Shown: piece by piece, positions 735-61,562 of the stretch
How the letters are laid out: every line of letters begins with the position of its first letter
Numbering within the stretch: position 1 is the stretch's first letter
Virus record (IMG/VR): IMGVR_UViG_3300037485_002668
Location: 35,245 to 99,244 of that record
Length of the DNA: 64,000 nucleotides
Direction: 5' to 3' (one strand)
Source: a virus
Translations under genes and position numbers: made by a program
Notes under the pieces: model-generated
Told to the model about the DNA's origin: nothing
The model's input: only the letters and a program-made list of their open reading frames with translations
The model's database searches: none

Positions 735-772
735 GCCTCACAGTCATCCCTCCCCACGGGCAAGCCGTGTGG
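735..772 (-). repeat. 37-bp junction element, copy 1 (degenerate box)
   Basis: Plus strand GCCTCACAGTCAT-CCCT-CCCCACGG-GCAAG-CCGTGTGG. Confidence 0.8.
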
Positions 773-781
773 TGATGGGGG

Positions 782-1972
782 TTACCAGACGTTTTCTTCG
801 TCCCATTGCCAGCCACCGGTGAGGGCGGAAACTTTTACACGATTGGTGTCGCCGAACTGACGTTCAATTCTCCAGATTAGGGCTTTCGTAAAAGGTATCT
901 GAGGATTGCCAGTTTCGATGGTACAGGTATCACCGATGTCGGACATGAGATCAACTAATTCACATTCAAATTCCAGCAGGACCAGACCGTTTTTGTAAAT
1001 CGAATAGGCACGCTTGGCGGTCTTGAGCGCCTGGCTGGAAGAAACGGATTGCGTAAATTCATCGCCGCCCATACACCAAAAGCTGCGGGCATCGCCGTCA
1101 ATATCATCAAAAAATGCCAGGTATGGGTCGGCAGTCAGGTCAGCGCCCGCGGCATAAATATCGGAACTGGTATCCAGGCAATGCAAATCTTCACTGCCGC
1201 CAACGATACTGACCAGATTGTTGTTGACACTTTTGCTATGCAACGAATGCAAGCCAGGGGCGGTCGCATCCGATGAACAATTACAATCAGACTCAGAACT
1301 GAAAGTTCCGTCAAAATCATTATTATCCGAATCAAAGACAGCGTTATTTTTGGCAATCACCGTGCCGGTATTCGCGCCATTTACACGGATACCGTAACTG
1401 TTCAGGTAGACGGTATTGTTGTAAATATAGGCGGTGTGACAATCTTCGATATTCACACCAGCTCCGTTATGATTATAAATAAAATTATTGTAAAGGCGAA
1501 CATTGGCATCCGCATGGTCAATCCAAATGCCGTGACAGGTATCCACCCGGTCGCCATAAAATAAATTATACGCGATTAGAACTTCGGAAGCGGCGCCTGA
1601 ATTTTCCCACCAGATACTATAGTGACTGGCGTCCACATCGGTCGAATCAAATGCAATGCCTTCAATGCGGCAATAGTTGGTGAAATTTTTAATCGTATAA
1701 CCGTTGATGCCGGTGTAATTAATCGTGAACCCTGTGCCCGCGGTACCCGTGTGGCGCTCAGCCGTGGGGGTATAGACGCGGGGGTAACGGGTAGCATCCA
1801 CGACCCATCCGTTCATCATAAACGATTCATTCAGCACCGAATCGTTATAACAAGCGGCCTGCTCAATCGTATCGGCGGCAACCAGGTCGCCGTTTTTAGC
1901 CGCTTCCCAGAGAGTCAGCGTGGCGTAATTGCGGCCGGCGGAACCAACCGTGCTGGTATTGACCGTGGGCAT
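782..1972 (-). CDS. Right-handed beta-helix (pectin-lyase-like) tailspike domain fused to a tail-hub-like C-terminal segment
   Basis: Asn-rich YNN(T/F)(I/V)Y repeats; domain ends GDARSFWCMGGDEF; last ~85 aa resemble a tail hub C-terminus. Confidence 0.65.
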   Translation of the reverse strand: MPTVNTSTVGSAGRNYATLTLWEAAKNGDLVAADTIEQAACYNDSVLNESFMMNGWVVDATRYPRVYTPTAERHTGTAGTGFTINYTGINGYTIKNFTNYCRIEGIAFDSTDVDASHYSIWWENSGAASEVLIAYNLFYGDRVDTCHGIWIDHADANVRLYNNFIYNHNGAGVNIEDCHTAYIYNNTVYLNSYGIRVNGANTGTVIAKNNAVFDSDNNDFDGTFSSESDCNCSSDATAPGLHSLHSKSVNNNLVSIVGGSEDLHCLDTSSDIYAAGADLTADPYLAFFDDIDGDARSFWCMGGDEFTQSVSSSQALKTAKRAYSIYKNGLVLLEFECELVDLMSDIGDTCTIETGNPQIPFTKALIWRIERQFGDTNRVKVSALTGGWQWDEENVW

Positions 1973-2709
1973 TAGGGCTTCTCCGTGACAATATTTTTCC
2001 GCAAGGGGACGTCAAAGCGGGGCGGCATCGAAACCCGTTGATCCTCAATGACTTCCTGGAAACGGGTGGTATTGGAAAATTTATAATCGGCCTGAATGCG
2101 GGTAATCAGGCTTTTGAAAGCTTGCGAATCCGTGGCGGAAGTGGCCAGGTTTTGCAAGGTACGATTCGTGTTCAAATGCTGGCGGTAATTTATTTTAAAC
2201 TTGCGGTGTTTGGCGGCGTGGGGTTGACGCAAGGCTTTAATTTCTTTTTCATCAGCGAATTCAGCATCGGGAATATACAAGACCAAAAATTCCCGCAAGT
2301 CATTTTTACCATGGGATTTGGATTTTAAAAAATGGCGGGTCGGGTCCAGGTCGCTAAAGATTCGCAGCGCGCCGAAATGTGTTAATAAGTCGGGTTTCAC
2401 TTTTTCCAAATCCAGGGGGGCGCGCCAGCGGTCAATGGGGCGGTAATGCGGGAGCGCGGGCATGTGGCGAAAGGGGACGGCGGGGCGCGGCACCAGGTGG
2501 TAGGTTTTGTCGATTTCGTAAAAGTAAAAGCGCTGGCAATATTTATCGAACAGGGCGGGGACGAAGGGGATTTCCAGCGCGGGCGGGGTGGTGCCGCGGA
2601 TTAGCATGTGCGCCCAATCGCGAAGGATATCTGTGTCGGAATAGACTTCGAGAATATCGCCGTCATCGTAGACGGGGGAGTCGGAAATTTTCAGGACTAG
2701 TTCGGCCAT
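1972..2709 (-). CDS. Hypothetical protein
   Basis: ORF; ATG 1 nt after the repeat box. Confidence 0.6.
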   Translation of the reverse strand: MAELVLKISDSPVYDDGDILEVYSDTDILRDWAHMLIRGTTPPALEIPFVPALFDKYCQRFYFYEIDKTYHLVPRPAVPFRHMPALPHYRPIDRWRAPLDLEKVKPDLLTHFGALRIFSDLDPTRHFLKSKSHGKNDLREFLVLYIPDAEFADEKEIKALRQPHAAKHRKFKINYRQHLNTNRTLQNLATSATDSQAFKSLITRIQADYKFSNTTRFQEVIEDQRVSMPPRFDVPLRKNIVTEKP

Positions 2710-2710
2710 G

Positions 2711-2747
2711 GCTGTCAATCATCCTTCCACCCAGACAAGCTGGGTGG
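2711..2747 (-). repeat. 37-bp junction element, copy 2
   Basis: GCTGTCAATCAT-CCTT-CCACCCAG-ACAAG-CTGGGTGG. Confidence 0.95.
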
Positions 2748-2755
2748 TGGGTTTT

Positions 2756-2792
2756 GCTGTCAATCATAATTCCCCACGGGCAAGCCGTGGGG
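2756..2792 (-). repeat. 37-bp junction element, copy 3 (tandem with copy 2)
   Basis: GCTGTCAATCAT-AATT-CCCCACGG-GCAAG-CCGTGGGG. Confidence 0.95.
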
Positions 2793-2796
2793 TGGG

Positions 2797-12931: not shown

Positions 12932-13444
12932 TTACGGTAAGCTGAATGGCGGTAACGATGGCGGGGAATCGTTGGCAGCTTGTTTTCTTAAAAGAGCATT
13001 CCACTTTTCAAGTCCCGAATATAACGAACTATGCAAGCGTTTGTGCTGAAGACTTTTCATAATTACCAAATTTTCGGGGTCGTTATTGTTCCTGTCGCCA
13101 TCAATATGATGAACATGTTCGTCGGGTAATAATTTTTTTTGGAAATAATCTTCCGCGACACGGCGATAACCAACCGGGTCGTCACTTTTAATAAAAGTTT
13201 CATCTGAAGACAGAATAAGCCGATAAAAATAATTCTTATCGATTTCATGGTTATTATTGACGGCAGCGCCTATTTTGTTGACAATTTCGATAAACGTTTC
13301 CGGGTCGTCCCGAAAGTCGATATAAAAACGGCAATCATCGGCAGCAATAATCTTTGAAGCTTCGTCGGCAATGTCTGGTAAATTGAAAGCCGGATTAGTT
13401 TCAAAGATGTTAAAATCGATATTCGGTAATTCCAAATCAGTCAT
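12932..13444 (-). CDS. HNH endonuclease (HNH_3-like)
   Basis: EHVHHIDGDRNNNDPENLVIMKSLQHKRLH motif. Confidence 0.85.
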   Translation of the reverse strand: MTDLELPNIDFNIFETNPAFNLPDIADEASKIIAADDCRFYIDFRDDPETFIEIVNKIGAAVNNNHEIDKNYFYRLILSSDETFIKSDDPVGYRRVAEDYFQKKLLPDEHVHHIDGDRNNNDPENLVIMKSLQHKRLHSSLYSGLEKWNALLRKQAANDSPPSLPPFSLP

Positions 13445-13450: not shown

Positions 13451-13487
13451 TCTGTCAATCAGTTAACCCCGCGGGCGAGCCGCGGGG
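13451..13487 (-). repeat. 37-bp junction element, copy 4
   Basis: TCTGTCAATCAG-TTAA-CCCCGCGG-GCGAG-CCGCGGGG. Confidence 0.95.
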
Positions 13488-17857: not shown

Positions 17858-18955
17858 TTAACTATGGGTATCCAGACAGCTTAGGCCGTTTTTATCGATC
17901 ACGTGCATGGCAACGCGTTTCGAAATCACATAGCGTTCCTTTTGCTTTTCGATAATCCGATCAGTTTCGGTTAACAGCATGTTGTCGTTGGTGACATACC
18001 CTAACGCTTCGTCATCGGTGCCGAAAATACGGTCGGACGTCACGGTCGAGGTATCCCATTCGTAAAACGTGGGTAACTGAATACTGGTAAAGCCCCACTG
18101 TACGGGTGGATTGTTCATTTTAACAAAAGCCGTCCACCAGAGTACGCCCATGGCTTTCACGCCCAGACAGTTGCTGACGATATACGGTTTCGGCGGCTTC
18201 GTGGCAAATTCCACAATATCGCCTTCCACGATAATATCATTAGTGGCTACCGTAGCCGTGTTCCCAGCAGGGAGGCCGTTGCTATTGGCAGTATTGTCAC
18301 CATTGATAATCATGTAAACCATATTATCGGTTTCGGTAATCGCGATTTGCTGACCCACGCGCTGCAATACAGTGGCAACTAATGGTAACGGAACGTCTTT
18401 AATTTCTTCATAATTGAACAGAAATTGTTTACCGTATTTTTGCAAATTGACGGTCTGTTCGCTGACGGCCATGGTCACTGAGGGGAATTCCCCACCCGCG
18501 CCAACCACCGCGAACGTCCGCTGCGCTTCGGTGTCATCCAGGTAAACCTTTTTGTAAGACATACCTTTGATGACAGTATAATTTTTAATAAAAACCTGGG
18601 TCAAGCCCATTTTCATCGCGCCGGCGTAAACCTGCAACGACACATATTCCGCGAACAGGGTCGTGGTGGCGGAGGTGGAGAAAAACTTTTCCACCGGGTC
18701 GGCATAATTTCCAAACGCGTTGACGCCGTAATATTTAATAATTTCTTCAATCGCCGTATCAGGTACGGGCTGATTCGATTTACGCAACTGATGTTTCAAT
18801 TGATAAATTTCAAAGTTTGACTTTTGAGAATACAAAGATGGGCCGATGGCCTTTTCACGTTGATTCTCCAGCCAAACACGCAGGGGGTAGCCTTCCATTG
18901 CGGCTTGGGTATAGACCCCTTTATCGAGGTTGAGAGATTTAATCCAATCTGACAT
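17858..18955 (-). CDS. Major capsid protein (HK97 fold)
   Basis: 365 aa; VGAGGEFP...V.LQKYG..F.FNYE motif; synteny. Confidence 0.85.
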   Translation of the reverse strand: MSDWIKSLNLDKGVYTQAAMEGYPLRVWLENQREKAIGPSLYSQKSNFEIYQLKHQLRKSNQPVPDTAIEEIIKYYGVNAFGNYADPVEKFFSTSATTTLFAEYVSLQVYAGAMKMGLTQVFIKNYTVIKGMSYKKVYLDDTEAQRTFAVVGAGGEFPSVTMAVSEQTVNLQKYGKQFLFNYEEIKDVPLPLVATVLQRVGQQIAITETDNMVYMIINGDNTANSNGLPAGNTATVATNDIIVEGDIVEFATKPPKPYIVSNCLGVKAMGVLWWTAFVKMNNPPVQWGFTSIQLPTFYEWDTSTVTSDRIFGTDDEALGYVTNDNMLLTETDRIIEKQKERYVISKRVAMHVIDKNGLSCLDTHS

Positions 18956-21798: not shown

Positions 21799-21835
21799 GC
21801 CGTCAATCATAAGTCCACCCAGGCGGGCTGGGAGG
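21799..21835 (-). repeat. 37-bp junction element, copy 5
   Basis: GCCGTCAATCAT-AAGT-CCACCCAG-GCGGG-CTGGGAGG. Confidence 0.9.
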
Positions 21836-22050: not shown

Positions 22051-22947
22051 ATGAAAATCGAACGAACAATCAAAAATGAAAAAGTAGAAATAGCAGTTTT
22101 CTACTTTCACACCATTCGCAATACAAACCAAATCATTGTACATCTGAATTCTGCCTGGTTTGAAAAAGAAATCATCGGCGAATACTTTTCCGAATATCAG
22201 GGCAAAAAAGGCGTTATTCGCATTGATTCTTTTGAAAACAAAAATACGATACGCTTGCGAACACTGACTGGGACTCCTGAGAAACAAACGATGGCTTTTT
22301 TGGTTTCCCCTGAGATGTCAAGTGAATTACAAGCGGCTTCATATAATTTTTTAAAAGCCAAAGAAGATAAAGAAAATCGAGAGAAGGCGTTCCTTGCTAC
22401 ATTAACAATCGAAAATTCAAATTTAATAGCTTATCATCAGGGTGCTGGGGATTATTCAAGCGACTCGGTTTATCTTTGTACGAAATATGAATTTGAAGGC
22501 GAAACAGGTCGCAAATCTTTTGACCTGACGAAAAGCCAAACCGAACATCTGTATGCGTTTACAGTCAAGTTTGCGCCAAACAATTTATATTATGATACTT
22601 ACGAAGTAGAGCTTAACGAAACGCAAAAAGCCGAATTACTTGCCCTTTTGAATGAAGGCAAAAAAGAAGATGACGCTATTCAAGATGAAAAGAATCGTTA
22701 CAATTTAATGAGTGAAAGTGGGAAACGGTTTTATCAGGCGCATAAGCAAGCAAAAAAGATGATGGCCGAATATGAAGGGTTAACTTATCGTTATTGTTTC
22801 GCTAATTGCCTGAGTGAGATAATTAAGATTCAAAAATTTAACAAGTTTCGCGATGCTCAGGCAAAAAAAGGTTTGGGTCAATGTTGGGAATGTGGTTGCT
22901 GGGTTCCTTTTAAACAACTGGACGAAACGGGTTATTGTGGATGCTAA
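22051..22947 (+). CDS. Hypothetical early protein with C-terminal Cys cluster
   Basis: 298-aa ORF, strong SD, CWECGC...YCGC. Confidence 0.8.
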   Translation: MKIERTIKNEKVEIAVFYFHTIRNTNQIIVHLNSAWFEKEIIGEYFSEYQGKKGVIRIDSFENKNTIRLRTLTGTPEKQTMAFLVSPEMSSELQAASYNFLKAKEDKENREKAFLATLTIENSNLIAYHQGAGDYSSDSVYLCTKYEFEGETGRKSFDLTKSQTEHLYAFTVKFAPNNLYYDTYEVELNETQKAELLALLNEGKKEDDAIQDEKNRYNLMSESGKRFYQAHKQAKKMMAEYEGLTYRYCFANCLSEIIKIQKFNKFRDAQAKKGLGQCWECGCWVPFKQLDETGYCGC

Positions 22948-22993
22948 TTCTCTAATTAATCATATTTTTAACAATCAAAAAAGAGGTGTTCAG

Positions 22994-23305
22994 ATGAAAC
23001 AAGTGATCAATAAGAAACTGTACAATACGGAAACGGCTGAAAAGCTGCATTCGTATACTTTTTCAAATACAGGTGATTTTCATTATATTTCGGAAAGCCT
23101 GTACAAAACGAAATACGGGAACTACTTTTTGGCAGGCACGGGTGGAGCGGCATCGAAATATGGGAAAGCCTGTGGAAATAATTCGATGAGCGGCGGCACT
23201 GCTATTACGCCGATGACGGTCACGGAAGCGATTCAGTGGTTGGAAGATCATGACGGTTCCGAAGTAATCGAAAATCATTTTGCGAGTGAAATTCAGGAAG
23301 CATAA
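22994..23305 (+). CDS. Hypothetical phage protein (MKQVINKKLYNTETA...)
   Basis: SD AAGAGGTG before ATG 22994. Confidence 0.8.
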   Translation: MKQVINKKLYNTETAEKLHSYTFSNTGDFHYISESLYKTKYGNYFLAGTGGAASKYGKACGNNSMSGGTAITPMTVTEAIQWLEDHDGSEVIENHFASEIQEA

Positions 23306-23367
23306 AGAATGGGCGGCTAACCACCGCCCGGAATAATGAACTGAAAATTTAAAAAAAGAGGTGTGAA

Positions 23368-23646
23368 ATGAAATATACAAAAAAACATTGGACTCAAGAC
23401 GGAAAACAAGAGACCATAACTACTTATGATAGTGATATGGTTAAAGAGGCAATTGATATATTTTATAGTAAAGGGAAGGTTTCTTTCGTGCACCGAAACG
23501 GGACAGTCACAACTCTTCATCGGTTCAAAAATGTTGTTGAATATTTCCATCCGGTAGACAATAGTGTAGACGGAGAAACAAAATTAGAAAAAATAGATGA
23601 GGGAACTATTGCAAGTTATTGTTCCGAACAATATCGAATTGGATAG
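23368..23646 (+). CDS. Hypothetical protein
   Basis: SD AAGAGGTG. Confidence 0.75.
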   Translation: MKYTKKHWTQDGKQETITTYDSDMVKEAIDIFYSKGKVSFVHRNGTVTTLHRFKNVVEYFHPVDNSVDGETKLEKIDEGTIASYCSEQYRIG

Positions 23647-23648
23647 AG

Positions 23649-23716
23649 TCTAATCCCCGGTCGTTTCGGGCGTGACCGACGGCCGGGGAGCTACTTAATT
23701 AACTTAATTTTAACTT
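23649..23716 (+). repeat. Repeat family 2, copy A (GC-rich hairpin plus AT-rich tail)
   Basis: TCTAATCCCCGGTCGTTTCGGGCGTGACCGACGGCCGGGGAGCTACTTAATTAACTTAATTTTAACTT. Confidence 0.9.
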
Positions 23717-23735
23717 TAAACAAGAGGGGCAAGCC

Positions 23736-24050
23736 ATGAAATTAGAGGTAATGACTCGCAAACAAATAATTAAAGAAGCCGGAGAAACTGAAAACGTTCG
23801 GTATTGTATCACAGTGGGGTGGGCAAACGGAGAATGGAGATGTACCTGGTTCGAAGAAAACGAACCGTGGGAAAATTATCAATTTTTTGATCGGGGACGT
23901 GCGGGTTATTCATCTGCAAATAGGCATGTTTTCTTGATCGATAAAAAAAATAAAAAAATTTATTGTATCGAATGTCCAAATAAAGATGGGATTGAAGAGG
24001 TTGAAAGCTTTGCAACCGGATATAGAAAAAGTTTTACATTCAAAAATTAA
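23736..24050 (+). CDS. Hypothetical protein
   Basis: SD AAGAGGGG; bracketed by the family-2 repeats. Confidence 0.75.
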   Translation: MKLEVMTRKQIIKEAGETENVRYCITVGWANGEWRCTWFEENEPWENYQFFDRGRAGYSSANRHVFLIDKKNKKIYCIECPNKDGIEEVESFATGYRKSFTFKN

Positions 24051-24116
24051 TCTAATCCCCGGTCGCTTCGGGCGTGGCCGATGGCCGGGGGCTACTAATT
24101 AACTTAATTTTAACTT
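24051..24116 (+). repeat. Repeat family 2, copy B
   Basis: TCTAATCCCCGGTCGCTTCGGGCGTGGCCGATGGCCGGGGGCTACTAATTAACTTAATTTTAACTT. Confidence 0.9.
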
Positions 24117-24126
24117 AAGGAGATAT

Positions 24127-24366
24127 ATGGGGAAAAAATGGCTTGTTTTGGAATCGGGTCTAATGCAATTAGATGACCCGTATAACTGGATTTTAAGAAA
24201 TAGTAAAGAAAAAAATCCCCATTCAATAATCAGATGGTTGCCACTACCTCAACCATTGAGTTCCATCGGGGGATTACCAAAGGATCTATTCGAAAAAAGT
24301 AATGCCGTAAAGCTTTTTTCGGATGAAGACCTCTGGTTGGAGACATTCGGGATAAAAGTCAGATAA
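24127..24366 (+). CDS. Hypothetical protein
   Basis: SD AAGGAG. Confidence 0.75.
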   Translation: MGKKWLVLESGLMQLDDPYNWILRNSKEKNPHSIIRWLPLPQPLSSIGGLPKDLFEKSNAVKLFSDEDLWLETFGIKVR

Positions 24367-24378
24367 CTAAACAAATCA

Positions 24379-24522
24379 TTGCAGGAACTCCCTGGCGTCT
24401 GTACCCGCGAACTGAATAGTGACGTCCTGCGTGATCTTGCCACGACTGACGTAATTTATGAATTGTTGAAAAAAATCAGCGGCAAGCCTTATTATGATTG
24501 GTTTGAAAAAATGAACACCCAC
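24379..24522 (+). repeat. 144-bp inverted copy of 37733-37876
   Basis: Manual alignment: 141/144 identical to the reverse complement. Confidence 0.95.
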
Positions 24523-24535
24523 AGATGGAGGTTTA

Positions 24536-24865
24536 ATGAATAAAAAAACAATCAGTACCAGGGGGTCGATAGCCCTGGCTGAATGGGTTCAAAAAACATT
24601 CGGTAATCGGAACCGAGGCATGGAAGCAATGATTTGGTTTATCAAGGCTATTTTGGACAAAACGGAGTTGTCTTTCAGTGACGAAGTATTAAAAGAAATC
24701 GCCCAACGGGTCGGGAATTTACCGGCCGAATTTTGGGCGGATATTGAAGTCATTGCGATTATGGTTGGCGGAACTAACGGAATACTAATCAAGACATTGG
24801 ATGTCAATGAATGCTTTGCCATGATGGTACGCATTCAAAAGTTAAAAGTAAACAGTGAAAAGTAA
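24536..24865 (+). CDS. Hypothetical protein
   Basis: SD GGAGGT. Confidence 0.7.
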   Translation: MNKKTISTRGSIALAEWVQKTFGNRNRGMEAMIWFIKAILDKTELSFSDEVLKEIAQRVGNLPAEFWADIEVIAIMVGGTNGILIKTLDVNECFAMMVRIQKLKVNSEK

Positions 24866-24917
24866 AGAGTTAAAAGTTAAAAGCAAACAGTAAAAATTTA
24901 AAATCAAGAGGTAAGTT

Positions 24918-25379
24918 ATGGCAAATTTAAGTGAAATGATTGATTCGGCTGTGTTTGGAACGCGGCCAAATAATGAACAGATTGAACCCGTTCCGGTTGA
25001 TCCGCAAACATGCCCAGCGTGTAACCAAAGAGCCGATGTTTATTTTGAAAAGAATATGTATTTTAAACATAATTGTGGTGCAAGGCTGGTTACGATTACC
25101 GATGGAAATGGCAATTATGGCGTTGCTTATGATCATCGTTATCGACATCACCGTGTATGTGGAAAAGTTTACGCATACGAGTTGGTGTTGAAATTAGATG
25201 ATAACCGTGGTTTAGGTTATGTTTACGGAACGCCGCCAATTGAAAGTTGTTATGGCGTTGGTGAAGACTCCTATTTATATTTGATAGGGGATACCCCTTT
25301 TGAACCTGCAAATAAGCCATTCTCGTATGTAAAGCGAATTGGCGAATTTGGCGATGGCCATTTCTTAATTCCAGAATAA
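24918..25379 (+). CDS. Hypothetical zinc-ribbon protein
   Basis: SD AAGAGGT; CPAC...HNCG. Confidence 0.75.
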   Translation: MANLSEMIDSAVFGTRPNNEQIEPVPVDPQTCPACNQRADVYFEKNMYFKHNCGARLVTITDGNGNYGVAYDHRYRHHRVCGKVYAYELVLKLDDNRGLGYVYGTPPIESCYGVGEDSYLYLIGDTPFEPANKPFSYVKRIGEFGDGHFLIPE

Positions 25380-26789: not shown

Positions 26790-26810
26790 CCACCCAGACA
26801 AGCCGGGTGG
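26790..26810 (-). repeat. Junction element, copy 6 (hairpin only)
   Basis: CCACCCAG-ACAAG-CCGGGTGG; box not recognisable. Confidence 0.7.
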
Positions 26811-29743: not shown

Positions 29744-29780
29744 GCTGTCAATCATCATTCCACCCAGGCAAGCTGGGTGG
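29744..29780 (-). repeat. 37-bp junction element, copy 7 (downstream of cysH)
   Basis: GCTGTCAATCAT-CATT-CCACCCAG-GCAAG-CTGGGTGG. Confidence 0.95.
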
Positions 29781-30548: not shown

Positions 30549-30551
30549 GGT

Positions 30552-31307: not shown

Positions 31308-31318
31308 GGTAGCATCCG

Positions 31319-32506: not shown

Positions 32507-33183
32507 GTTTTTACCTCTTCTGTTTTGATTTTATAAAGTGAATTAACCATTAATTTAAATTGTTCCGTATGTCGGACGGGTTGTAATTTTTTATAATCCG
32601 AAAAACTTAGGCTGTACTTTTGAAATTTCCAGGGTGGAATCGTACCGGCCAGCAGTTCATCTTTGGTACATTTATTTTCATAAAATGATTTTGCGATTTT
32701 ATAAAAATCAAACCACCGGGAGCGTTCAAACTGGATATTCAAGTTGTCAGTACAGACGTAAAATAATGCTGAATTATGTGAAACAAGCGACTTAAAAGCA
32801 ATATGTTTTTTCCCGCTCTGGCTAAAAACCAGAATAAACGGCGGGTTAAACGAATGTTCAAATAGATAGAACGGCTTTTCACTAAAGTCGATTTTAATAA
32901 ATTGATTGTTTTCTACCAGGTACGAATACAATCGCAAGCCACACCGCGCACCTTTGGGGCTTGCCAGGCTTTCATCGGAAAGTGAAAAAACGCAAAAATC
33001 ACAAAGTACGTCGGATTGTTTGTACCTCAGCATATTATAATCGGTAAAGTTGCCTGAAAAAATCTCTTTAGCTTTACGCCATTCTGACATGATTCGCGTG
33101 CCACCACATAGACAGCAGGTTTGGTCAGAATCGATTCCTGGCTTTTGCGTGATGGCGGTTACGATAAATTCTGTGTTGGTCAT
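32494..33183 (-). CDS. csf1: Type IV Cas8-like large subunit (Csf1)
   Basis: CCLCG...FSGNFTDY...SDVLCDFC zinc finger; PPF...SQSGKKH motif. Confidence 0.8.
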   Translation of the reverse strand: MTNTEFIVTAITQKPGIDSDQTCCLCGGTRIMSEWRKAKEIFSGNFTDYNMLRYKQSDVLCDFCVFSLSDESLASPKGARCGLRLYSYLVENNQFIKIDFSEKPFYLFEHSFNPPFILVFSQSGKKHIAFKSLVSHNSALFYVCTDNLNIQFERSRWFDFYKIAKSFYENKCTKDELLAGTIPPWKFQKYSLSFSDYKKLQPVRHTEQFKLMVNSLYKIKTEEVKTCPE

Positions 33184-33197: not shown

Positions 33198-33234
33198 GCT
33201 GTCAATCATGATTCCACACGGGCAGGCCGTGTGG
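33198..33234 (-). repeat. 37-bp junction element, copy 8 (upstream of csf1)
   Basis: GCTGTCAATCAT-GATT-CCACACGG-GCAGG-CCGTGTGG. Confidence 0.95.
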
Positions 33235-34870: not shown

Positions 34871-35184
34871 CTGTAGGGTCCTTGGCTGTCAATCAGGTTT
34901 CCACCTGGCCTGTCCAGGTGGGGGAATAGATTATTTTTTAGTTGTTCGGCTTGTTCGTAGGTGGCGTCATCGACGTAGGATAATTCGGAAAAGCCACTCA
35001 GGGAATAGCCGACAAGCTGGGCAAATTGAATACGGTCTTCGTCTGAAAAATCCATCAGGGCAAGTTTGTTCAGATCATGTGGCCCATGTTCAAGCAAAAA
35101 TTGGACAATGGCATTGGCCTTGAAACGCAACGTGCCATGTTGGTCTTGAATAAGGGGTTGCAGGGGATGGGATTTATTTTCCAT
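34867..35184 (-). CDS. Hypothetical phage protein; 3' end reads through a repeat copy
   Basis: HPLQP...RFKANAIV...QFAQLVGYSLSGF. Confidence 0.75.
   Translation of the reverse strand: MENKSHPLQPLIQDQHGTLRFKANAIVQFLLEHGPHDLNKLALMDFSDEDRIQFAQLVGYSLSGFSELSYVDDATYEQAEQLKNNLFPHLDRPGGNLIDSQGPYR
34885..34921 (-). repeat. 37-bp junction element, copy 9
   Basis: GCTGTCAATCAG-GTTT-CCACCTGG-CCTGT-CCAGGTGG. Confidence 0.9.
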
Positions 35185-35185: not shown

Positions 35186-35222
35186 GCTGTAAGTCATCCT
35201 TCCACACGGGCGAGCCGTGTGG
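35186..35222 (-). repeat. 37-bp junction element, copy 10
   Basis: GCTGTAAGTCAT-CCTT-CCACACGG-GCGAG-CCGTGTGG. Confidence 0.9.
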
Positions 35223-35236: not shown

Positions 35237-35548
35237 TTAATTGCGCGGGGGGATTAGGTTTTTGTCCCGCAAATATAGAATTAATTCTTTGACCAGCTTT
35301 TTGCTGGCAACGAAACTTAGAATACCCATCACTAAACGGGTTTTGCGGCTGAGGCCGTAAGAGGCGTTTTCGATGGCGCTGACCCGATTTTTGGGATGGG
35401 AGAAACCCAGTAGTTCGCCGAACAATCGTTGCGAAATGCCGAGGCATTGGCGCAAGCGATAGACGGGGTGTTGACGTTTTTTGAGGGCTTTGGCGGAAAC
35501 CTTCGGGACGGAACTGGTTTTCGGGAGGTAATTTACGGTTTTTTTCAT
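35237..35548 (-). CDS. Cro/XRE-like HTH protein
   Basis: RLRQCLGISQRLFGELLG...VSAIEN. Confidence 0.7.
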   Translation of the reverse strand: MKKTVNYLPKTSSVPKVSAKALKKRQHPVYRLRQCLGISQRLFGELLGFSHPKNRVSAIENASYGLSRKTRLVMGILSFVASKKLVKELILYLRDKNLIPPRN

Positions 35549-38991: not shown

Positions 38992-39028
38992 GCTGACAAT
39001 CATGATTCCACACGGGCAGGCCGTGTGG
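38992..39028 (-). repeat. 37-bp junction element, copy 11
   Basis: GCTGACAATCAT-GATT-CCACACGG-GCAGG-CCGTGTGG. Confidence 0.95.
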
Positions 39029-40247: not shown

Positions 40248-40284
40248 GCTGTCAATCATACTTCCCCACGGGCAAGCCGTGGGG
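40248..40284 (-). repeat. 37-bp junction element, copy 12
   Basis: GCTGTCAATCAT-ACTT-CCCCACGG-GCAAG-CCGTGGGG. Confidence 0.95.
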
Positions 40285-41090: not shown

Positions 41091-42463
41091 TTTTGTTCCT
41101 TTTTAATTGGTTGCTTTTCAGGGGGATTAAATTCAAGTTCCAACGCTTTGAGGGCGCGGAAAAAATCAAGTCGGGCTTGTTCCAGTTCGGCTTCGCAAAT
41201 ATCGTAATAAAATTCACGGGCGGCGGCAGCGAAAGCATAGCCCGCGGCCTGGATTGCACCCAGGTGGCCTTCGCCATCGACCCAACCTGATTTGATGCTG
41301 GCTTCGTTGTTGGGGTCTTCGATATTGTCGGACCAGACGCGGCCGAGGTTCATAAAATTCTCCTGGCGATTACTCAGACTCCCGCTCAGGCAAGCTGGGC
41401 GGTGGGGCAAGCTGGGCGGTGGGGCAGGGGTTAAAAAGTAAATTATTTTTTCAGTCCCTTCGGCGATTGAAGGGCATTTTTCAGCTATTAATTTGTAAAT
41501 TTCTTTCCAGGCTTGGTTTATAAAAAAATCGTTCGGCAAGCCTACACCCGCATGATCTGAAAATGGAACCATGTAATCAAAAATTGGATTATCGTTTTCA
41601 TCATATTTCACAAATTCGGCCTGAATATTTGTGCCAGCAATATCAATTTTAACGTCACGGATATAAACGGGGCGGAACAGGTCTTGCAAGGTACGATAAA
41701 TAGCCTGGTTCACCCGATATACGATACTTTCAGGCGGCCAGGTTAACCAAAAGCGTTCTAAAGGCTGCAACGGATTTGCCCGGAATTGTTTAAGATCTTC
41801 CAAACCATAATGATATTTAGGCGTATTTTTTATGACATTTTCGATTGTATGTTCAGGGTATAGCTGAACGAATTCGGTTTCCAGTTGCTCCGCCTCAAGT
41901 GACTTTTCATTAAAAAATAGTTGGTATCGTTCGTCTTCTGATTCAGGGAAAACACGGGACGGGTCGGCATTAAGCCACGCATCATAAACGGGTTCCATTT
42001 CTTCGACAGAAATGCTGCTACCCCAAAAATTGAAATTATCAAGGATGGTAATTTGTTTTTCTTTTAACGCCCACGCACGGAAAGCTTGATCCCGTTTAAT
42101 GTGAAGTTCATTTTGATTTTCTACCAATGCGTTAATTATGTTCCGGGATACGCAATAACCAAAACAATTCCCGTCCGAAGGTTTGATTAGCAGATACACT
42201 TCAGGCATCGGCGTAGTAACGATCCATTTCGCTAAATCCTTAAAATCATCCCAGCCGACAGCAGGGTAGCCGAAGCGACGGAAACAATAGGCCATTACAT
42301 CCGCTCCCTTAGGTTTTAAGTTCAGGCAAAGTTCAGCGGGGTAACTGGGGTCTAAAATTGAACCGCCCATGGCGCTTTCATAATTTAAAATAGGTTCAAT
42401 TGACTCAATCGCCTGGGCGGTAAAGCCATCAGCGTAAACGATTTCAGGGGTAAAAGTTAACAT
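41087..42463 (-). CDS. Hypothetical protein; apparent fusion of two genes through a degenerate repeat (second gene ATG at 41353)
   Basis: Repeat-derived PPPSLPHRPACLSGSL linker before MNLGRVW. Confidence 0.65.
   Translation of the reverse strand: MLTFTPEIVYADGFTAQAIESIEPILNYESAMGGSILDPSYPAELCLNLKPKGADVMAYCFRRFGYPAVGWDDFKDLAKWIVTTPMPEVYLLIKPSDGNCFGYCVSRNIINALVENQNELHIKRDQAFRAWALKEKQITILDNFNFWGSSISVEEMEPVYDAWLNADPSRVFPESEDERYQLFFNEKSLEAEQLETEFVQLYPEHTIENVIKNTPKYHYGLEDLKQFRANPLQPLERFWLTWPPESIVYRVNQAIYRTLQDLFRPVYIRDVKIDIAGTNIQAEFVKYDENDNPIFDYMVPFSDHAGVGLPNDFFINQAWKEIYKLIAEKCPSIAEGTEKIIYFLTPAPPPSLPHRPACLSGSLSNRQENFMNLGRVWSDNIEDPNNEASIKSGWVDGEGHLGAIQAAGYAFAAAAREFYYDICEAELEQARLDFFRALKALELEFNPPEKQPIKKEQK
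41366..41424 (-). repeat. Junction element, copy 13 (degenerate, intragenic, 18-bp partial duplication)
   Basis: CCGCTCAG-GCAAG-CTGGGCGG, with GCAAGCTGGGCGGTGGGG repeated. Confidence 0.8.
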
Positions 42464-46111: not shown

Positions 46112-46149
46112 GCCTTTCAATCAGTTAACCCCCCAGGCGGGCTGGGGGG
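46112..46149 (-). repeat. 37-bp junction element, copy 14
   Basis: CCTTTCAATCAG-TTAA-CCCCCCAG-GCGGG-CTGGGGGG. Confidence 0.9.
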
Positions 46150-49147: not shown

Positions 49148-49184
49148 GCTGTCAATCATACTCCCACCCAGGCGGGCTGGGTGG
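49148..49184 (-). repeat. 37-bp junction element, copy 15 (precedes the tRNA-like RNA)
   Basis: GCTGTCAATCAT-ACTC-CCACCCAG-GCGGG-CTGGGTGG. Confidence 0.95.
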
Positions 49185-50325: not shown

Positions 50326-50362
50326 GCTACCAATCAGATTTCTACCCAGGCAAGCTGGGTAG
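50326..50362 (-). repeat. 37-bp junction element, copy 16 (precedes the 270-nt RNA)
   Basis: GCTACCAATCAG-ATTT-CTACCCAG-GCAAG-CTGGGTAG. Confidence 0.9.
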
Positions 50363-50842: not shown

Positions 50843-50879
50843 GCTATCAATCATGGAACTACACGGGCAAGCCGTGTAG
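50843..50879 (-). repeat. 37-bp junction element, copy 17
   Basis: GCTATCAATCAT-GGAA-CTACACGG-GCAAG-CCGTGTAG. Confidence 0.95.
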
Positions 50880-51782: not shown

Positions 51783-52563
51783 GGGCGGGCACTCCAACAT
51801 AGTAGTCGTGGGGTGCTTGGCTGTCAATCACGGTTCCATCCGGGCAAGCCGGATGGTGACCTTCGTATTCAGCGTGCACTTGGCCGTTCACGGGGGCATT
51901 GGATTCAAAGGTGTGGCTGGTAAATGAACGTTTGGAATCGCAATACAAGGCGTAGTGCATGGTTTGGCCTTCCAGGAACATGGCGCGCATTACGTGATTG
52001 GTCATGACGGCGTTGACGGGGAGCGCCCAGGTAAAGTTGGTAAAATAGGCGTCCAGTTCGCTGAAGACGTTTACGCCGTCATCAAAAAAGGAATCTTTGT
52101 TTACGGCCATGCGGCAGACGCTGTTGACGAATAGCCAGCGGGGGGCTTTGCGTTGCATGGTTTCGAGCAGGTCACGCAGGTCAATGGCGGGGATATGCTG
52201 CAAGACGTAGACGCACAGGCCAAAATCGTAAACGGCGGGGTCGCTTAAATAATCGTGTAAAGTTTGCGGGGTGAAACGGTCGGACAGGACGTAACTTTTG
52301 GCGATAGATAACATTTGCGGGGATTGGTCAACGCCGGTAATTTCGATTTGGCGGGTGGGGTCGTTGGCCAGGATATATTTTTCCAGGCGACCGCTGCCAC
52401 AGCCGAACGACAGAATTTTTTTACCAGAAATTTTGGTTAAATCGGCGAGGAGTAAATCGCCGAAAATTTTAGTTTCGTGTTCCCAGCGGACGTGGGTCGG
52501 GATATTGTTACAATCGCCGACGGTCATGTGCTGGGATTCTTCGAGGGAGCGGGGAGAGAACAT
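51775..52563 (-). CDS. Class I SAM-dependent methyltransferase; 3' end reads through a repeat copy
   Basis: LSFGCGSGR, GVDQSPQML, CVYVLQHIP. Confidence 0.85.
   Translation of the reverse strand: MFSPRSLEESQHMTVGDCNNIPTHVRWEHETKIFGDLLLADLTKISGKKILSFGCGSGRLEKYILANDPTRQIEITGVDQSPQMLSIAKSYVLSDRFTPQTLHDYLSDPAVYDFGLCVYVLQHIPAIDLRDLLETMQRKAPRWLFVNSVCRMAVNKDSFFDDGVNVFSELDAYFTNFTWALPVNAVMTNHVMRAMFLEGQTMHYALYCDSKRSFTSHTFESNAPVNGQVHAEYEGHHPACPDGTVIDSQAPHDYYVGVPAHA
51820..51856 (-). repeat. 37-bp junction element, copy 18
   Basis: GCTGTCAATCAC-GGTT-CCATCCGG-GCAAG-CCGGATGG. Confidence 0.95.
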
Positions 52564-52578: not shown

Positions 52579-52615
52579 GCTGATAATCATGATTCCACCC
52601 AGGCAAGCTGGGTGG
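52579..52615 (-). repeat. 37-bp junction element, copy 19
   Basis: GCTGATAATCAT-GATT-CCACCCAG-GCAAG-CTGGGTGG. Confidence 0.95.
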
Positions 52616-54033: not shown

Positions 54034-54271
54034 AGACCACTTCCTTAATGAAGATAATTGCAATCCAATTAATCCGGCCGAATTTTAGGTCGGTCGTTAA
54101 CTTTTGCGCCATGTTGAACTTGACCTGTTCCAGGGTTTCGTAGCTCAACGGCAGGGGAACATCTTTGAGAAGCAAATTGCCTTTGATGACGCGGTTGGCA
54201 ACGGCGGCCAGTTCGACCAGCGGGCAAACCTCGGCTTCCCAAGTGAGGTAAAAAGATTGGGTTTTGACCAT
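53981..54271 (-). CDS. Hypothetical protein
   Basis: ATG lies within the repeat box. Confidence 0.5.
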   Translation of the reverse strand: MVKTQSFYLTWEAEVCPLVELAAVANRVIKGNLLLKDVPLPLSYETLEQVKFNMAQKLTTDLKFGRINWIAIIFIKEVVYANNSEFSETQTAASSA

Positions 54272-54304
54272 CAATCATCCTTTTCCCCCAGGCGGGCTGG
54301 GGGG
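54268..54304 (-). repeat. 37-bp junction element, copy 20
   Basis: CCATCAATCAT-CCTTT-TCCCCCAG-GCGGG-CTGGGGGG. Confidence 0.85.
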
Positions 54305-55639: not shown

Positions 55640-55676
55640 GCTGTCAATCAGTAAACCACACGGGCGAGCCGTGTGG
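55640..55676 (-). repeat. 37-bp junction element, copy 21
   Basis: GCTGTCAATCAG-TAAA-CCACACGG-GCGAG-CCGTGTGG. Confidence 0.95.
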
Positions 55677-56934: not shown

Positions 56935-56971
56935 GCTGTCAATCAGATTTCCACTCAGGCGGGTTGGGTGG
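56935..56971 (-). repeat. 37-bp junction element, copy 22 (before terL)
   Basis: GCTGTCAATCAG-ATTT-CCACTCAG-GCGGG-TTGGGTGG. Confidence 0.9.
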
Positions 56972-57027
56972 GGTGGTTATGGGTTATGGCGGGGGGAACT
57001 AGAATATTTTGGGGCGGGGTGGCTGTG

Positions 57028-57064
57028 GCCGTCAATCATGATTCCACCCAGACAAGCTGAGTGG
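57028..57064 (-). repeat. 37-bp junction element, copy 23 (after terS)
   Basis: GCCGTCAATCAT-GATT-CCACCCAG-ACAAG-CTGAGTGG. Confidence 0.9.
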
Positions 57065-57080
57065 TGGAAATGGCTTGGCT

Positions 57081-58336: not shown

Positions 58337-58545
58337 GTGTCTTTTCTTTCAAAATCGCCACAGAAATGCGCCCAATAGCGGAGAATAATTGGGTATAGCG
58401 GCTGACCTAGCTTTTCAAGGGACGGGTTGGCAACGGGCGCGTGGCGACAGCATTGGTAGCCAATCCGATATTTACAATTTTCGCAAATTTCAAATTTTTT
58501 AGTAAGCGCCAATTTTTCTATGGGGCACAAATTCGGTTCAGTCAT
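58324..58545 (-). CDS. Small Cys-rich protein
   Basis: CENC...CCRHAP...CGDF. Confidence 0.6.
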   Translation of the reverse strand: MTEPNLCPIEKLALTKKFEICENCKYRIGYQCCRHAPVANPSLEKLGQPLYPIILRYWAHFCGDFERKDTCPN

Positions 58546-58813
58546 ATAGCAACTTTAGAAATTCAAATAAAGGCTGCAACTTTTGTTGCATCAATTCAAT
58601 TTCGGCGGGGGTGAACGTAATTTTTTTCAGCGCCTTTGCCCGTTTTTCGGGGGACAGGTTATTTAATTTAGCGAACAAAATGGCGGCGCTATGGATACGG
58701 GAATAATAACCTGCGGCGGAAGCGTCGGGAAAAAGCGCGTTGATATTCAGCAACTTTTGTTTATCTTTTAGCAGTTCATGTAATTTTAACATGAGTTCAA
58801 TTGGTCGATCCAT
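58538..58813 (-). CDS. Hypothetical protein
   Basis: Overlapping ORF in operon. Confidence 0.55.
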   Translation of the reverse strand: MDRPIELMLKLHELLKDKQKLLNINALFPDASAAGYYSRIHSAAILFAKLNNLSPEKRAKALKKITFTPAEIELMQQKLQPLFEFLKLLYD

Positions 58814-59949: not shown

Positions 59950-61087
59950 TGGTTGTTTCTCCTAAAAGTTTTTGAATTTTTTGTTTTACTTTTTCTTTTT
60001 CCAAAAAGTTCAGATTGAATGATTTAAATGACACATGCAACGTTCGGGTTGTTTCCGTGTTGGCCGCGGCCAGGTCGGATTTAATTTGCGCCAGGGCGGA
60101 TTCGGGCACCTGATATTTATCCAGCACGGCTTTCAATACCTGGGCGGTGGAAATAATCGACTTACCGGGTTTATAATAAATATGCCAGCCCTGGCCGCCG
60201 ACGCCTTCCAGGTCACGAAAGGCTTGTTTAATGGCTTCCCGCTGGGTTTCTTTGAGTTCCGTCAACTGGTCCAGCAGGGTGGTGACGTACCAATGTTCCA
60301 TAATTAGCTGCTGCGTTTCGGGCGTGACTTCGGTCAGGCTTTGAACAGGTTTCAGCGATTTGACGGAAGACAAGTACGTATCATGGGCGGGCGGGGGTAC
60401 TTTTTTCAGAATGTAATTTTTCCAGAAAAATTCGGCGACGGATTCAATTTCTTCGCACAGGTTACGGTCGTAAGGAATCCGGTAATACCGTTGCTGGAAC
60501 GTGTGAGCGATACCCAGGAGCATTAAATCCCGATGGCGGCGGGGATTGAATTTAAAACCCAGGTCGCCATTGGGGAACGTATCCATCGGCGGCGGGTCAA
60601 GATTGTAACGAATACCGGCAACGTCCACCAGGAGCATAATATCCCAATGGGGGAGCGGGGTGTCCAGGTATTTGGTGTACAAATGATTATACCACAGGCA
60701 CTGCAACTGAATATGTTCGGGGACGCCGGTAATCGTGAACGGGTCGCCGGGTTCCCAATTGGCATAGAATCCATTACGGTCGGTGGTTTTGACATCCACG
60801 CCGCGGGCGTCCACGTGGCCCACGCGCCAATCGGAACGGATAAACTGACCGACGTCTTTTAATTTCGTATGGGTATATTCGGCGTACAGACGCAGGCCGA
60901 TGGGTTCCAGTACCAGTCCCCAGTGCATAATTTTTGACATTTCAGCCGTGGGCGCACCGTGCACAATTTGGTTATAGACGGTGGTCATGTTGCCGTAGGG
61001 GGATTTGCCCAGGATCATGGCGATGGCGGAGCCGCCGATACCGGATTGGCGTTCGGGATTGGCAATTAGATTTGATTCTGCGTTCAT
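59942..61087 (-). CDS. YqaJ / lambda-exonuclease family protein
   Basis: RQSGIGGS..A.ILG.SPY, HWG..LEP, VDA...DVKT, Q.QC.WY. Confidence 0.88.
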   Translation of the reverse strand: MNAESNLIANPERQSGIGGSAIAMILGKSPYGNMTTVYNQIVHGAPTAEMSKIMHWGLVLEPIGLRLYAEYTHTKLKDVGQFIRSDWRVGHVDARGVDVKTTDRNGFYANWEPGDPFTITGVPEHIQLQCLWYNHLYTKYLDTPLPHWDIMLLVDVAGIRYNLDPPPMDTFPNGDLGFKFNPRRHRDLMLLGIAHTFQQRYYRIPYDRNLCEEIESVAEFFWKNYILKKVPPPAHDTYLSSVKSLKPVQSLTEVTPETQQLIMEHWYVTTLLDQLTELKETQREAIKQAFRDLEGVGGQGWHIYYKPGKSIISTAQVLKAVLDKYQVPESALAQIKSDLAAANTETTRTLHVSFKSFNLNFLEKEKVKQKIQKLLGETTNE

Positions 61088-61097
61088 TAACAATTCT

Positions 61098-61307
61098 CTA
61101 TGGTTTCTTTTTTTCGGGACGGGCAGTTTCCATTTCTATTACGGCGCACTTCAGGCTCATTAAATGGTCTTCCATAGTTTTATAAGTAGGCTCTTCAATA
61201 TAGCCTTCCAAAAGTAAAAAATATAAGAAATTAGACAGGCTAAGCCAGTGATAATAGCCGTTTTCTTTAGCGAATTCACCATTGGGACATTTATCGCAAA
61301 CGGACAT
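61098..61307 (-). CDS. Hypothetical protein
   Basis: SD AAGGA. Confidence 0.55.
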   Translation of the reverse strand: MSVCDKCPNGEFAKENGYYHWLSLSNFLYFLLLEGYIEEPTYKTMEDHLMSLKCAVIEMETARPEKKKP

Positions 61308-61309
61308 GG

Positions 61310-61522
61310 TTATGATCCTTTTTTATTCAGTTGTTTCAATTTGCGGGCTATGGCGAATAACTCCTGTTGAGTCAACGCTTCGCCGCAGCCAGGCCAATAG
61401 CGCAATTTATTTAATTTGCGTCCGGTTTCAAGATAACCCCGGCAAAAGCCAAGTTCGCCTTTACCACAATTGTCGTTGATACGATAACCGTTTTTAACTT
61501 TGGTAAAAATGAATGTTTGCAT
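61310..61522 (-). CDS. Hypothetical protein
   Basis: ATG 3 nt after a repeat box. Confidence 0.55.
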   Translation of the reverse strand: MQTFIFTKVKNGYRINDNCGKGELGFCRGYLETGRKLNKLRYWPGCGEALTQQELFAIARKLKQLNKKGS

Positions 61523-61525
61523 TTG

Positions 61526-61562
61526 GCTGCCAATCTGTTTACCACCCAGGCAAGCTGGGCGG
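61526..61562 (-). repeat. 37-bp junction element, copy 24
   Basis: GCTGCCAATCTG-TTTA-CCACCCAG-GCAAG-CTGGGCGG. Confidence 0.85.

Follow-up and report, generated by a model that had tools for sequence, protein, structure and literature searches.

A co-oriented hairpin-plus-box element at gene junctions of a phage genome that matches no described family

Motifs repeated genome-wide at gene junctions are known in a few phage groups, and with each of them came the discovery of a different strategy by which phage genomes are run. Here we describe such a motif, a co-oriented element made of a short hairpin followed by a conserved box, in the IMG/VR virus record IMGVR_UViG_3300037485_002668. The stretch analysed (the window, 64,000 nt) comprises bases 35,245-99,244 of this 99,244-bp record, which has direct terminal repeats and is estimated to be complete. 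Several described systems come close to the element. In phage T7, the RNase III sites (R0.3 to R18.5) are irregular double-stranded stems of ∼20 bp that are cut by the host enzyme and carry no sequence box; once cut, they leave the upstream message with a protective hairpin and create a new 5′ end near the next ribosome-binding site. The giant virion polymerase of phage N4 uses three early hairpin promoters, in which a stem of 5-7 bp carries a 3-nt loop whose centre is ∼11-12 nt away from the start. Cluster A mycobacteriophages carry 24-34 stoperators, asymmetric 13-bp sites in one orientation (in L5, GGTGGMTGTCAAG; PMC3029335, PMC9283540). In Cluster K mycobacteriophages, a 13-bp asymmetric box of unknown function, called SAS, lies 3-7 bp before start codons and includes the core of the Shine-Dalgarno (SD) sequence; in half of the cases an inverted repeat (ESAS) is found just upstream, with 17-bp repeats, variable spacing and differences that do not support RNA pairing (PMC3203893). 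PeSL cassettes of T4-type phages combine a stem-loop terminator with a host sigma-70 early promoter (PMC2839356, PMC4122927). Finally, CRISPR repeats of types I-E and IV-A have a 7-8-nt tag between the hairpin base and the repeat end (PMC11519345). The junction-bound, co-oriented and genome-wide habit is common to the element, stoperators, SAS/ESAS, PeSLs, T7 sites and N4 promoters; still, the element differs from each of the compared families in at least one tested defining feature and is a member of none.

A search with the box ATGATTGACAGC, allowing up to two mismatches, returned 25 matches where 4.3 are expected (none of 100 shuffles reached 25), and 20 of these were on the minus strand. 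We then scanned the whole genome (99,244 bp) for an 8-bp stem with a 5-nt loop, a gap of 3-5 nt and the box; the scan gave 24 full copies, all on the minus strand, and one chance match. These 24 copies and the imperfect copy at window position 56971 make up the alignment of 25 copies used below. With the covariance model built from the aligned copies, 24 copies, every one on the minus strand, score 46-70 bits. Two decayed copies (window 41408 and genome 27088) and a relic reduced to the hairpin (window 26810) also emerged; the plus strand showed only echoes of the hairpin alone. The window thus holds 22 intact and two decayed copies (Table 1). Four further copies (genome 34940, 34626, 33728 and 27088) are located left of the window, for ∼28 genome-wide.

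In the sense direction the consensus reads (A/T-rich)-CCA-CCACCCAG-CTTGC-CTGGGTGG-AAnn-ATGATTGACAGC-CAA. The stem has 8 bp, the loop 5 nt (conserved CYYGC) and the box 12 nt; the linker from hairpin to box measures 4 nt in 22 of the 25 copies and 5 nt in three. The conserved span amounts to ∼45 nt, with CCA or CCC ahead of the hairpin and CAA behind the box, and a C-A step directly 3′ of the box is present in 19 of 25 copies. Linker length, loop and flanks are kept across the alignment while the linker sequence drifts. The ATG of the box is replaced by CTG in eight copies and by CAG in one.

The stem is paired in 97% of alignment cells. Compensatory changes on both sides were found in six of the eight stem pairs, with none of 500 shuffles reaching the observed covariation score, and pairing falls to 34-52% in controls with the partner slid by 1-3 columns. 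Several stem variants arose on each of the two main stem types, so the variation does not merely reflect two inherited lineages. It is stem pairing, not sequence, that is under selection. The compensatory changes of both half-sites exclude a palindromic double-stranded protein site or operator. Non-Watson-Crick pairs do not distinguish the strands (four sense G-U versus four antisense-type C-A). On folding, the hairpin was predicted in every context folded, and the box was mostly open.

Rfam gave no match to the window at the gathering score and no CRISPR-DR or other plausible match at E ≤ 10 for three copies of the element. Strict and degenerate patterns of the element were absent from IMG/VR, and 185,579 GTDB reference genomes yielded six single chance matches, none with a full box or in multiple copies; a host REP or MITE was rejected on the count obtained with the degenerate pattern. 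The searches of Rfam and IMG/VR proposed in the initial annotation of this DNA returned no family and no copy. The element is real, a hairpin plus a box that match no known described family.

From the right end of the genome down to genome position ∼26,000, nearly every gene is encoded on the minus strand; only one block, at window 22,051-25,379, is inverted (plus strand). The copies are confined to the coding strand of a single co-directional block (genome 27,088-96,806); the plus-strand block and the leftmost 27 kb, the early, lysogeny and replication part, are free of them. Copy-to-copy spacing ranges from 45 nt to 10.7 kb, with genes between, and there are only two close pairs (periods of 45 and 93 nt). 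Gaps that bear the element are 40-150 nt long; some gaps of the block carry none. Of the 25 aligned copies, 24 are entirely in untranslated sequence, and the remaining one is inside the 3′ end of a methyltransferase frame. In most copies the hairpin begins 4-24 nt past the upstream stop codon. The next start codon follows the box by 1-8 nt without an SD or by 13-23 nt with an SD, in an overall range of 1-89 nt. Near-matches to the box without the hairpin were found neither in non-coding DNA nor at promoters; those detected are coding and at chance level.

Individual copies are informative. The ATG of the large terminase (TerL) gene stands 3 nt past the box and has no SD; this start codon is genuine, because in tblastn TerL aligns from residue 3 onwards with the terminase of a Thermoanaerobacterium phage. 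The copy at 50362 is positioned between a sigma-70-like promoter and a structured non-coding RNA (ncRNA) of ∼270 nt, whose closing stem starts 3 nt past the box; being downstream of a promoter, this copy is probably transcribed in the leader and serves an untranslated RNA. The capsid operon is headed by the copy at 21835 in a divergent gap, with TTGACT-17-TATATT on the plus side and no sigma-70-like site on the minus side. There are few intrinsic terminators between units of the block; one is at 50057-50044 (minus). Between the two copies before the terminase gene there is a 55-nt non-coding stretch (window 56972-57027, minus) that is very C-rich and almost G-free. Searches of IMG/VR and of the rest of the genome gave no match to it; it may serve for Rho entry or be a small RNA.

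The anatomy given in the initial annotation stands nearly as it was. The 24 copies counted there in the window are the 22 intact and two decayed ones; all are co-oriented, on the minus (coding) strand, with the near-fixed geometry that was claimed. Selection for stem pairing and the even split of wobbles between strands were borne out, as were the absence of copies from the plus-strand operon (by scan and covariance model) and the presence of one copy (21799..21835) at the head of the capsid operon. The distances differ somewhat. The hairpin had been placed 3-17 nt after the upstream stop (here 4-24 nt), and the two classes of start codon spacing had been given as 1-6 nt without and 14-18 nt with an SD (here 1-8 and 13-23 nt).

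Like SAS/ESAS, the element has a box near start codons, in a single orientation and limited to one part of the genome; unlike them, its box has no SD, its stem is compensatory (six of eight pairs), its spacing is fixed, it also precedes an ncRNA and its distance to the start varies from 1 to 89 nt. With PeSLs it has in common the composite design of stem-loop plus signal and co-oriented positions between genes (PeSLs flank accessory genes in plastic regions), but it has no U tract or -10 and is located in a middle/late block that includes structural genes. T7 RNase III sites likewise form hairpins of a single orientation where genes adjoin on long polycistronic phage transcripts. In contrast to them, the stem of the element, at 8 bp, is too short for RNase III and is tied at a fixed distance to a conserved single-stranded box, and cleavage is a proposal made here.

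What the element does we infer from its anatomy. The reading that we favour, and hold tentatively, is that of an RNA hairpin and single-stranded box carried by long middle/late transcripts, where a dedicated factor would recognise them and thereby set the boundaries of messages. The element would be a cis-acting signal on co-directional phage RNA, consisting of the 8-bp hairpin with its CYYGC loop, 4 (rarely 5) variable bases and a single-stranded box of 12-15 nt. A single factor, probably phage-encoded, would read hairpin and box jointly and punctuate the polycistronic RNA; the hairpin would remain at, or protect, the 3′ end of the upstream message, and the downstream message would receive a defined 5′ end or a ribosome entry point at or just past the box. 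The analogy is to T7 RNase III sites or to the cutting of repeats by Cas6-type enzymes, with a short sequence-specific hairpin-plus-box unit as the signal. On this reading, the RNA form may be the active one, a protein may read it and cleavage or 5′-end definition may occur.

Several features of the locus are consistent with such a signal. Joint recognition of hairpin and box would be expected to conserve loop, flanks and linker length while letting the linker sequence drift. Cutting or 5′-end definition at the box would give rise to the two spacing classes, near-leaderless messages and messages with minimal SD leaders. The scarcity of terminators between units fits read-through transcripts in need of internal punctuation. 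One protein reading hairpin plus tail would explain together the selection on the stem, the fixed distance of the box and the confinement to the coding strand, the ncRNA copy included. The failure to detect a phage RNA polymerase or a factor of the sigma-70 family also counts for an RNA signal. Among the roles listed in the initial annotation, a site creating RNA 5′ ends just past the box, by processing or as a special promoter, remains the best reading, judged from anatomy. Other observations pull the opposite way. The G-U wobbles give the sense strand no preference (four versus four), and no RNA-binding or RNA-cutting protein was identified, the four Cas6 families (PF01881, PF10040, PF09618 and PF08798) being absent in a six-frame search of the genome. 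The capsid-operon copy, in a divergent gap without another recognisable promoter on its strand, is easier to understand as a promoter, and confinement to one temporal block is a classic signature of phage-specific promoters. In addition, one copy is inside a reading frame, where ribosomes would unfold the hairpin. If the element does define 5′ ends, it would explain SD-less translation of genes such as that of the large terminase and would represent a compact, portable ‘cut or start here’ signal. The covarying stem with a box at fixed distance points to an undescribed sequence-specific reader of RNA or single-stranded DNA.

Readings of the element as a DNA site have to be weighed against the RNA signal. 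A phage-specific middle/late promoter, starting at the CA past the box and served either by host RNA polymerase that a phage factor redirects or by a phage polymerase, in both cases a phage protein that escaped detection, does better on block restriction and on the capsid-operon copy and worse on the covarying stem and fixed spacing; overall we consider it the main rival, though rather unlikely. Under such a promoter the hairpin would be extruded as DNA, as in N4 early promoters, or would have a second task in protecting the 3′ end of the upstream message. The ∼28 co-oriented copies in one gene block, directly before genes with very short leaders, and the C-A step seen past the box in 19 of 25 copies agree with transcription starts. 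So does the capsid-operon gap, whose plus side has a canonical sigma-70 site and whose minus side has only the element, and so does the first copy, which follows small early open reading frames (ORFs), one weakly NinG-like, and takes the position of a lambdoid late promoter. Yet stem covariation, a conserved loop and fixed spacing are alien to double-stranded promoters, a sigma-70-like promoter precedes one copy, and Pfam and PHROG scans of ∼75 ORFs revealed neither a polymerase nor a sigma factor. A six-frame search for partner enzymes of the kinds suggested in the initial annotation found no sigma-70 region 2 or 4, HUH transposase or Cas6; a six-frame search with PF00940 (T7-like polymerase) gave no match, a weak negative as control genomes gave no match either and a divergent polymerase could escape such a search. 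The element resembles N4 promoters in being a small hairpin with specific loop bases at a fixed distance from a putative start or box. The N4 parallel, however, requires a virion polymerase and early genes, whereas the ∼28 sites seen here, with the loop centre ∼27 nt from the box end, belong to middle/late genes, no such polymerase was found and the sole giant protein is the tape measure. An ordinary sigma-70 promoter was rejected: the box holds TTGACA, but nothing is conserved past CAA, a weak -10 follows in only three of 22 window copies and several start codons (e.g. the TerL ATG) would fall within the spacer. An intrinsic terminator was rejected as well, as the stem is followed not by a U tract but by AAnn-ATGATTGACAGC, and the terminator scan flags no minus-strand copy. 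Sigma-54 promoters activated by a phage enhancer-binding protein, with the GG at the hairpin end and the TTG of the box at -24/-12 spacing, are suggested by a sensor-less activator encoded at genome 21760-22761 (Sigma54_activat, 3.5e-51, with HTH_8) and by one good site, TGGCACG-N4-TTGA, at genome 19289 (minus), upstream of an operon that ends in the integrase gene; the element (TGG-N8-TTGA) has the same spacing and fits GG-N10-G. Against this, none of 25 copies has GC at -13/-12 (GA, GG, GT, AT or TA is found instead), the most conserved box positions (TGA) fall at non-conserved positions of sigma-54 promoters, the predicted start would be 3-6 nt inside five genes with an ATG 1-4 nt past the box, that of TerL included, and stem covariation is left unexplained, which makes sigma-54 highly improbable. 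Stoperator-like sites, at which an immunity repressor bound to the double-stranded asymmetric box would block elongating RNA polymerase in the prophage, match the element in copy number, short intergenic gaps and single orientation, and the phage, with its tyrosine integrase, is probably temperate, as are the siphoviruses that carry stoperators; the box in the direction of transcription (GATTGACAGCCAA) also has TTGACAGCCA in common with the complement of the L5 consensus. We regard them as very unlikely. Stoperators have no hairpin and some double as promoter operators, while here the box is always accompanied by its covarying hairpin and none of the copies coincides with an early promoter in the manner of an operator; the stem covariation and fixed hairpin-box spacing would have no role, replication and early genes carry no copy, the host is no mycobacterium (45% GC) and nothing related to the L5 repressor was noted. 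It is hardly probable that the copies are single-stranded DNA recombination or mobility sites (attC, REP/RAYT or IS200/IS605-like) turning the genome into a cassette array, a role also named in the initial annotation. Co-oriented hairpins at gene junctions, compositional borders of the csf block (see below) that coincide with two copies, one flipped loop, tandem and partly duplicated copies and an HNH endonuclease gene directly after one copy would suit such sites. The six-frame genome search, though, found no Y1/HUH transposase (Y1_Tnp), the sole recombinase is an ordinary phage-type integrase 50 kb away, there is no R′/R″ complementarity around the hairpin, copies are absent from IMG/VR and, chance matches aside, from reference genomes, and the phage has no relatives for a comparison of gain and loss. 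Breaks in GC content at third codon positions (GC3) also occur inside units without the element, and so elements as the sole borders of imported DNA were rejected.

The remaining readings keep the element at the RNA level. A non-cleaving RNA operator, on which a phage protein bound to hairpin and box would block or open the ribosome-binding region or reload an antitermination factor, draws on the same alignment and covariation evidence as the RNA-boundary signal. Parallels for operators are T4 RegA, the coat protein of RNA phages and Mu Com, and for antitermination nut and rrn boxB-boxA. The box ends 1-23 nt from start codons, within the ribosome footprint, and a real terminator within the block (50057-50044) calls for control of read-through. 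We nevertheless find an operator unlikely: the copies before the ncRNA and the 55-nt spacer leave translation control without an object, ∼28 antitermination sites would be without precedent and the box shows no preference for pairing with start regions over control starts. On the last point, a role of the box as a start-codon mask was rejected, since duplex energies were no better than for 84 control starts (p ∼0.07); no antisense partner of the box was found in non-coding RNA. The box ATG as a leader-peptide start was also rejected, given its random frames (7/5/8), the CTG in eight copies and conservation that is not codon-like. The translational-coupling switch of the initial annotation fails likewise, because the box ATG is lost in nine copies and its frames to the next gene are random. 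In a different proposal, which we think quite unlikely, the element is a solitary CRISPR-like repeat that serves as a loading site for a Csf complex. The phage encodes an array-less type IV-B CRISPR-Cas module (csf1, csf2, csf3 and a cysH-like gene; window 29,805-33,183, minus) with copies of the element on both sides. Csf3 (Cas5) or Csf1 would read the box as a handle, and Csf2 would polymerise on adjacent phage RNA and so bring the CysH-like enzyme to transcripts or their DNA copies. The module comes without array, Cas6 or DinG, as in the definition of subtype IV-B, and the csf-flanking copies are among the four closest to the consensus. The element has the size of a repeat (37 nt), with a GC hairpin followed by a tail that contains ATTGACAG, presumably reminiscent of repeat ends of the ATTGAAAG type. 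The natural RNA partner and function of type IV-B systems are open questions in the literature (PMC8175902, PMC7937560). General likeness to hairpin-type CRISPR repeats (I-C, I-E, I-F and IV-A) extends to the length of ∼37 nt, the GC-rich hairpin, the conserved single-stranded tail and transcription of one strand, in a genome that has a Cas5/Cas7/Csf1 set. Unlike CRISPR repeats, the copies do not form an array with 30-40-nt spacers; distances of 0.3-10 kb and intervening genes separate them, and the tail past the hairpin has 16-19 nt, compared with the 7-8-nt tag of type IV-A (PMC11519345). For the 55-nt ‘spacer’ between copies 57064 and 56971, neither the genome nor IMG/VR holds a target. With no array, no Cas6, no CRISPR-DR match in Rfam even at E ≤ 10 and a 16-nt tail, the membership among dispersed CRISPR-like repeats that the initial annotation had considered was not confirmed. 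Composition argues against the loading site too. The csf block is a low-GC island (38.6%; GC3 of 0.32-0.42 versus 0.6 in neighbours), and the nearest examined relatives of Csf2, on three contigs with 46-48% identity, belong to phages of 26-31% GC in which hairpin scan, repeat finder, k-mer count and covariance model detected no element. This suggests that the csf module was acquired recently, by a genome in which the element was already in use, and a functional link between the two is possible but not supported, which we take to be improbable.

Were such a link to exist, the RNA partner of type IV-B would be the mobile element's own transcripts, marked at gene junctions, with the CysH-like enzyme acting there; a phage that combines the element, a Csf module and an RNA ligase thus offers a concrete candidate for the RNA that a type IV-B complex binds. 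Within the module, PADLOC finds only Csf1, Csf2 and Csf3. Csf2 (395 aa) has a stretch, residues 42-116, that weakly matches the type IV Cas11 model (PADLOC 9e-4), and no separate cas11 gene was seen. Its Cas7 part (residues 155-392) lies behind the Cas11-like segment, and its length is common to all 19 relatives found. A tblastn search of Csf2 against phages gave no match; the closest Csf2 (62% identity, on a 25.8-kb contig) was outside the comparison of elements. Two type IV-B plasmids, pMYCSM03 of Mycobacterium sp. JS623 (L023:2438-12869) and a plasmid of Gordonia sp. Swx-4 (L024:29092-35265), have co-oriented junction modules of ∼200 nt that punctuate a gene array downstream of the cysH-like gene. 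The modules consist of a covarying GC hairpin with a conserved loop, TTGTCGGTGG...TAGTGT or TAGAAT and a leader; in pMYCSM03 the hairpin-loop motif is restricted to ∼25 kb of 164 kb, beside the csf/cysH locus. They look like ordinary terminator-plus-promoter units, and the parallel with the phage may be a coincidence.

Table 1. Copies of the element in the window, in order of transcription, and proteins of the Csf module (window coordinates)
Feature	Coordinates	Strand	Score, detection or remark
First copy in transcription order; box CAGATTGGCAGC, start 3 nt past box	61526..61562	minus	57.1 bits
Copy followed by 55-nt C-rich non-coding spacer	57028..57064	minus	60 bits
Copy with imperfect stem; TerL start 3 nt past box, no SD	56935..56971	minus	51.9 bits
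Copy before ParB-like/DNA methyltransferase gene; start 4 nt past box	55640..55676	minus	scan and covariance model
Copy with 5-nt linker, upstream of portal gene	54267..54304	minus	scan and covariance model
Copy before methyltransferase gene; SD-led start 15 nt past box	52579..52615	minus	scan and covariance model
Copy inside 3′ end of methyltransferase frame, before glycosyltransferase gene	51820..51856	minus	scan and covariance model
Copy followed by sigma-70-like promoter TTGACT-16-TATATT and 105-aa ORF	50843..50879	minus	scan and covariance model
Copy between TTGACT-17-TACTTT and ∼270-nt ncRNA ending in terminator 50057-50044	50326..50362	minus	scan and covariance model
Copy 3′ of DUF5131 gene	49148..49184	minus	scan and covariance model
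Copy with box CTGATTGAAAGG	46113..46149	minus	scan and covariance model
Decayed copy; 5′ arm partly duplicated, box degenerate, then SD and ATG	41366..41408	minus	32.9 bits
Copy before RNA ligase gene	40248..40284	minus	scan and covariance model
Copy 3′ of RNA ligase gene	38992..39028	minus	scan and covariance model
Copy with start of 105-aa ORF 1 nt past box	35186..35222	minus	scan and covariance model
Copy with complemented loop (hairpin flipped)	34885..34921	minus	plus-strand hairpin alone 20.1 bits
Best-scoring copy, 14 nt before csf1	33198..33234	minus	69.7 bits
Copy 24 nt past cysH-like gene	29744..29780	minus	66.4 bits
Hairpin-only relic, box decayed	26790..26810	minus	19 bits
Copy heading capsid operon, divergent gap	21799..21835	minus	no minus-strand sigma-70-like site
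Copy just before tape-measure gene; HNH endonuclease gene start 6 nt past box	13451..13487	minus	scan and covariance model
Tandem pair (45-nt period), copy 1; 4 nt past upstream stop	2756..2792	minus	box search and covariance model
Tandem pair, copy 2; start 1 nt past box	2711..2747	minus	box search and genome scan
Copy with weak box ATGACTGTGAGG	736..772	minus	46.5 bits
Csf1		minus	PADLOC 9.7e-29
Csf2, with weak Cas11-like stretch	31319-32506	minus	Pfam RAMPs 4e-9; PADLOC 2.7e-36
Csf3		minus	PADLOC 8.1e-24
CysH-like protein		minus	NCBIfam and Pfam matches to PAPS reductase family

The phage is siphovirus-like and probably temperate. Identified proteins include the tape-measure protein (2,734 aa), the major head protein, the portal protein and TerL; a DnaB-like helicase, an O-like initiator, the tyrosine integrase and the RNA ligase are also encoded, and DNA methyltransferases and glycosyltransferases are numerous. 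In megablast, 20 kb of the genome gave no match to phages. TerL has no relative in IMG/VR and its closest match among named phages is 48% identical. For the major head protein (window 17858-18955, minus) no homologue at E ≤ 1e-20 was found among 5.8 billion protein clusters, and among phage records it matched a few gut phages at 24-26% identity. On these sequence comparisons the phage is an isolated lineage without close relatives in the collections searched.

Some further genes and structures were observed. The free-standing HNH endonuclease gene (window 12932-13444, minus; HNH_3, 5e-8) is located between the tail genes and the tape-measure gene. Within the block of the element, a 103-aa ORF (window 35237-35548, minus), to which PADLOC gave no match, resembles by eye a small helix-turn-helix protein of the Xre type. 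Just upstream of the first copy, two adjacent ORFs of 169 and 143 aa (window 61936-62869, minus) appear to be paralogous; they have common motifs in the middle of the protein and at the C terminus, match no family and are candidate early regulators. At the right end of the genome (window 63920-64000, minus), GGTTCGAGTCCTGCACCGGGACA upstream of the first ORF resembles the T-arm and acceptor 3′ half of a tRNA; ARAGORN found no whole tRNA in the window. Phage enzymes of the PurZ type accompany DNA in which 2-aminoadenine replaces adenine. At genome 5315-6493 (minus), the phage encodes a 392-aa adenylosuccinate synthetase homologue (Pfam, 8.3e-40), and a base change of the PurZ type could alter the behaviour of promoters and DNA hairpins in this phage.

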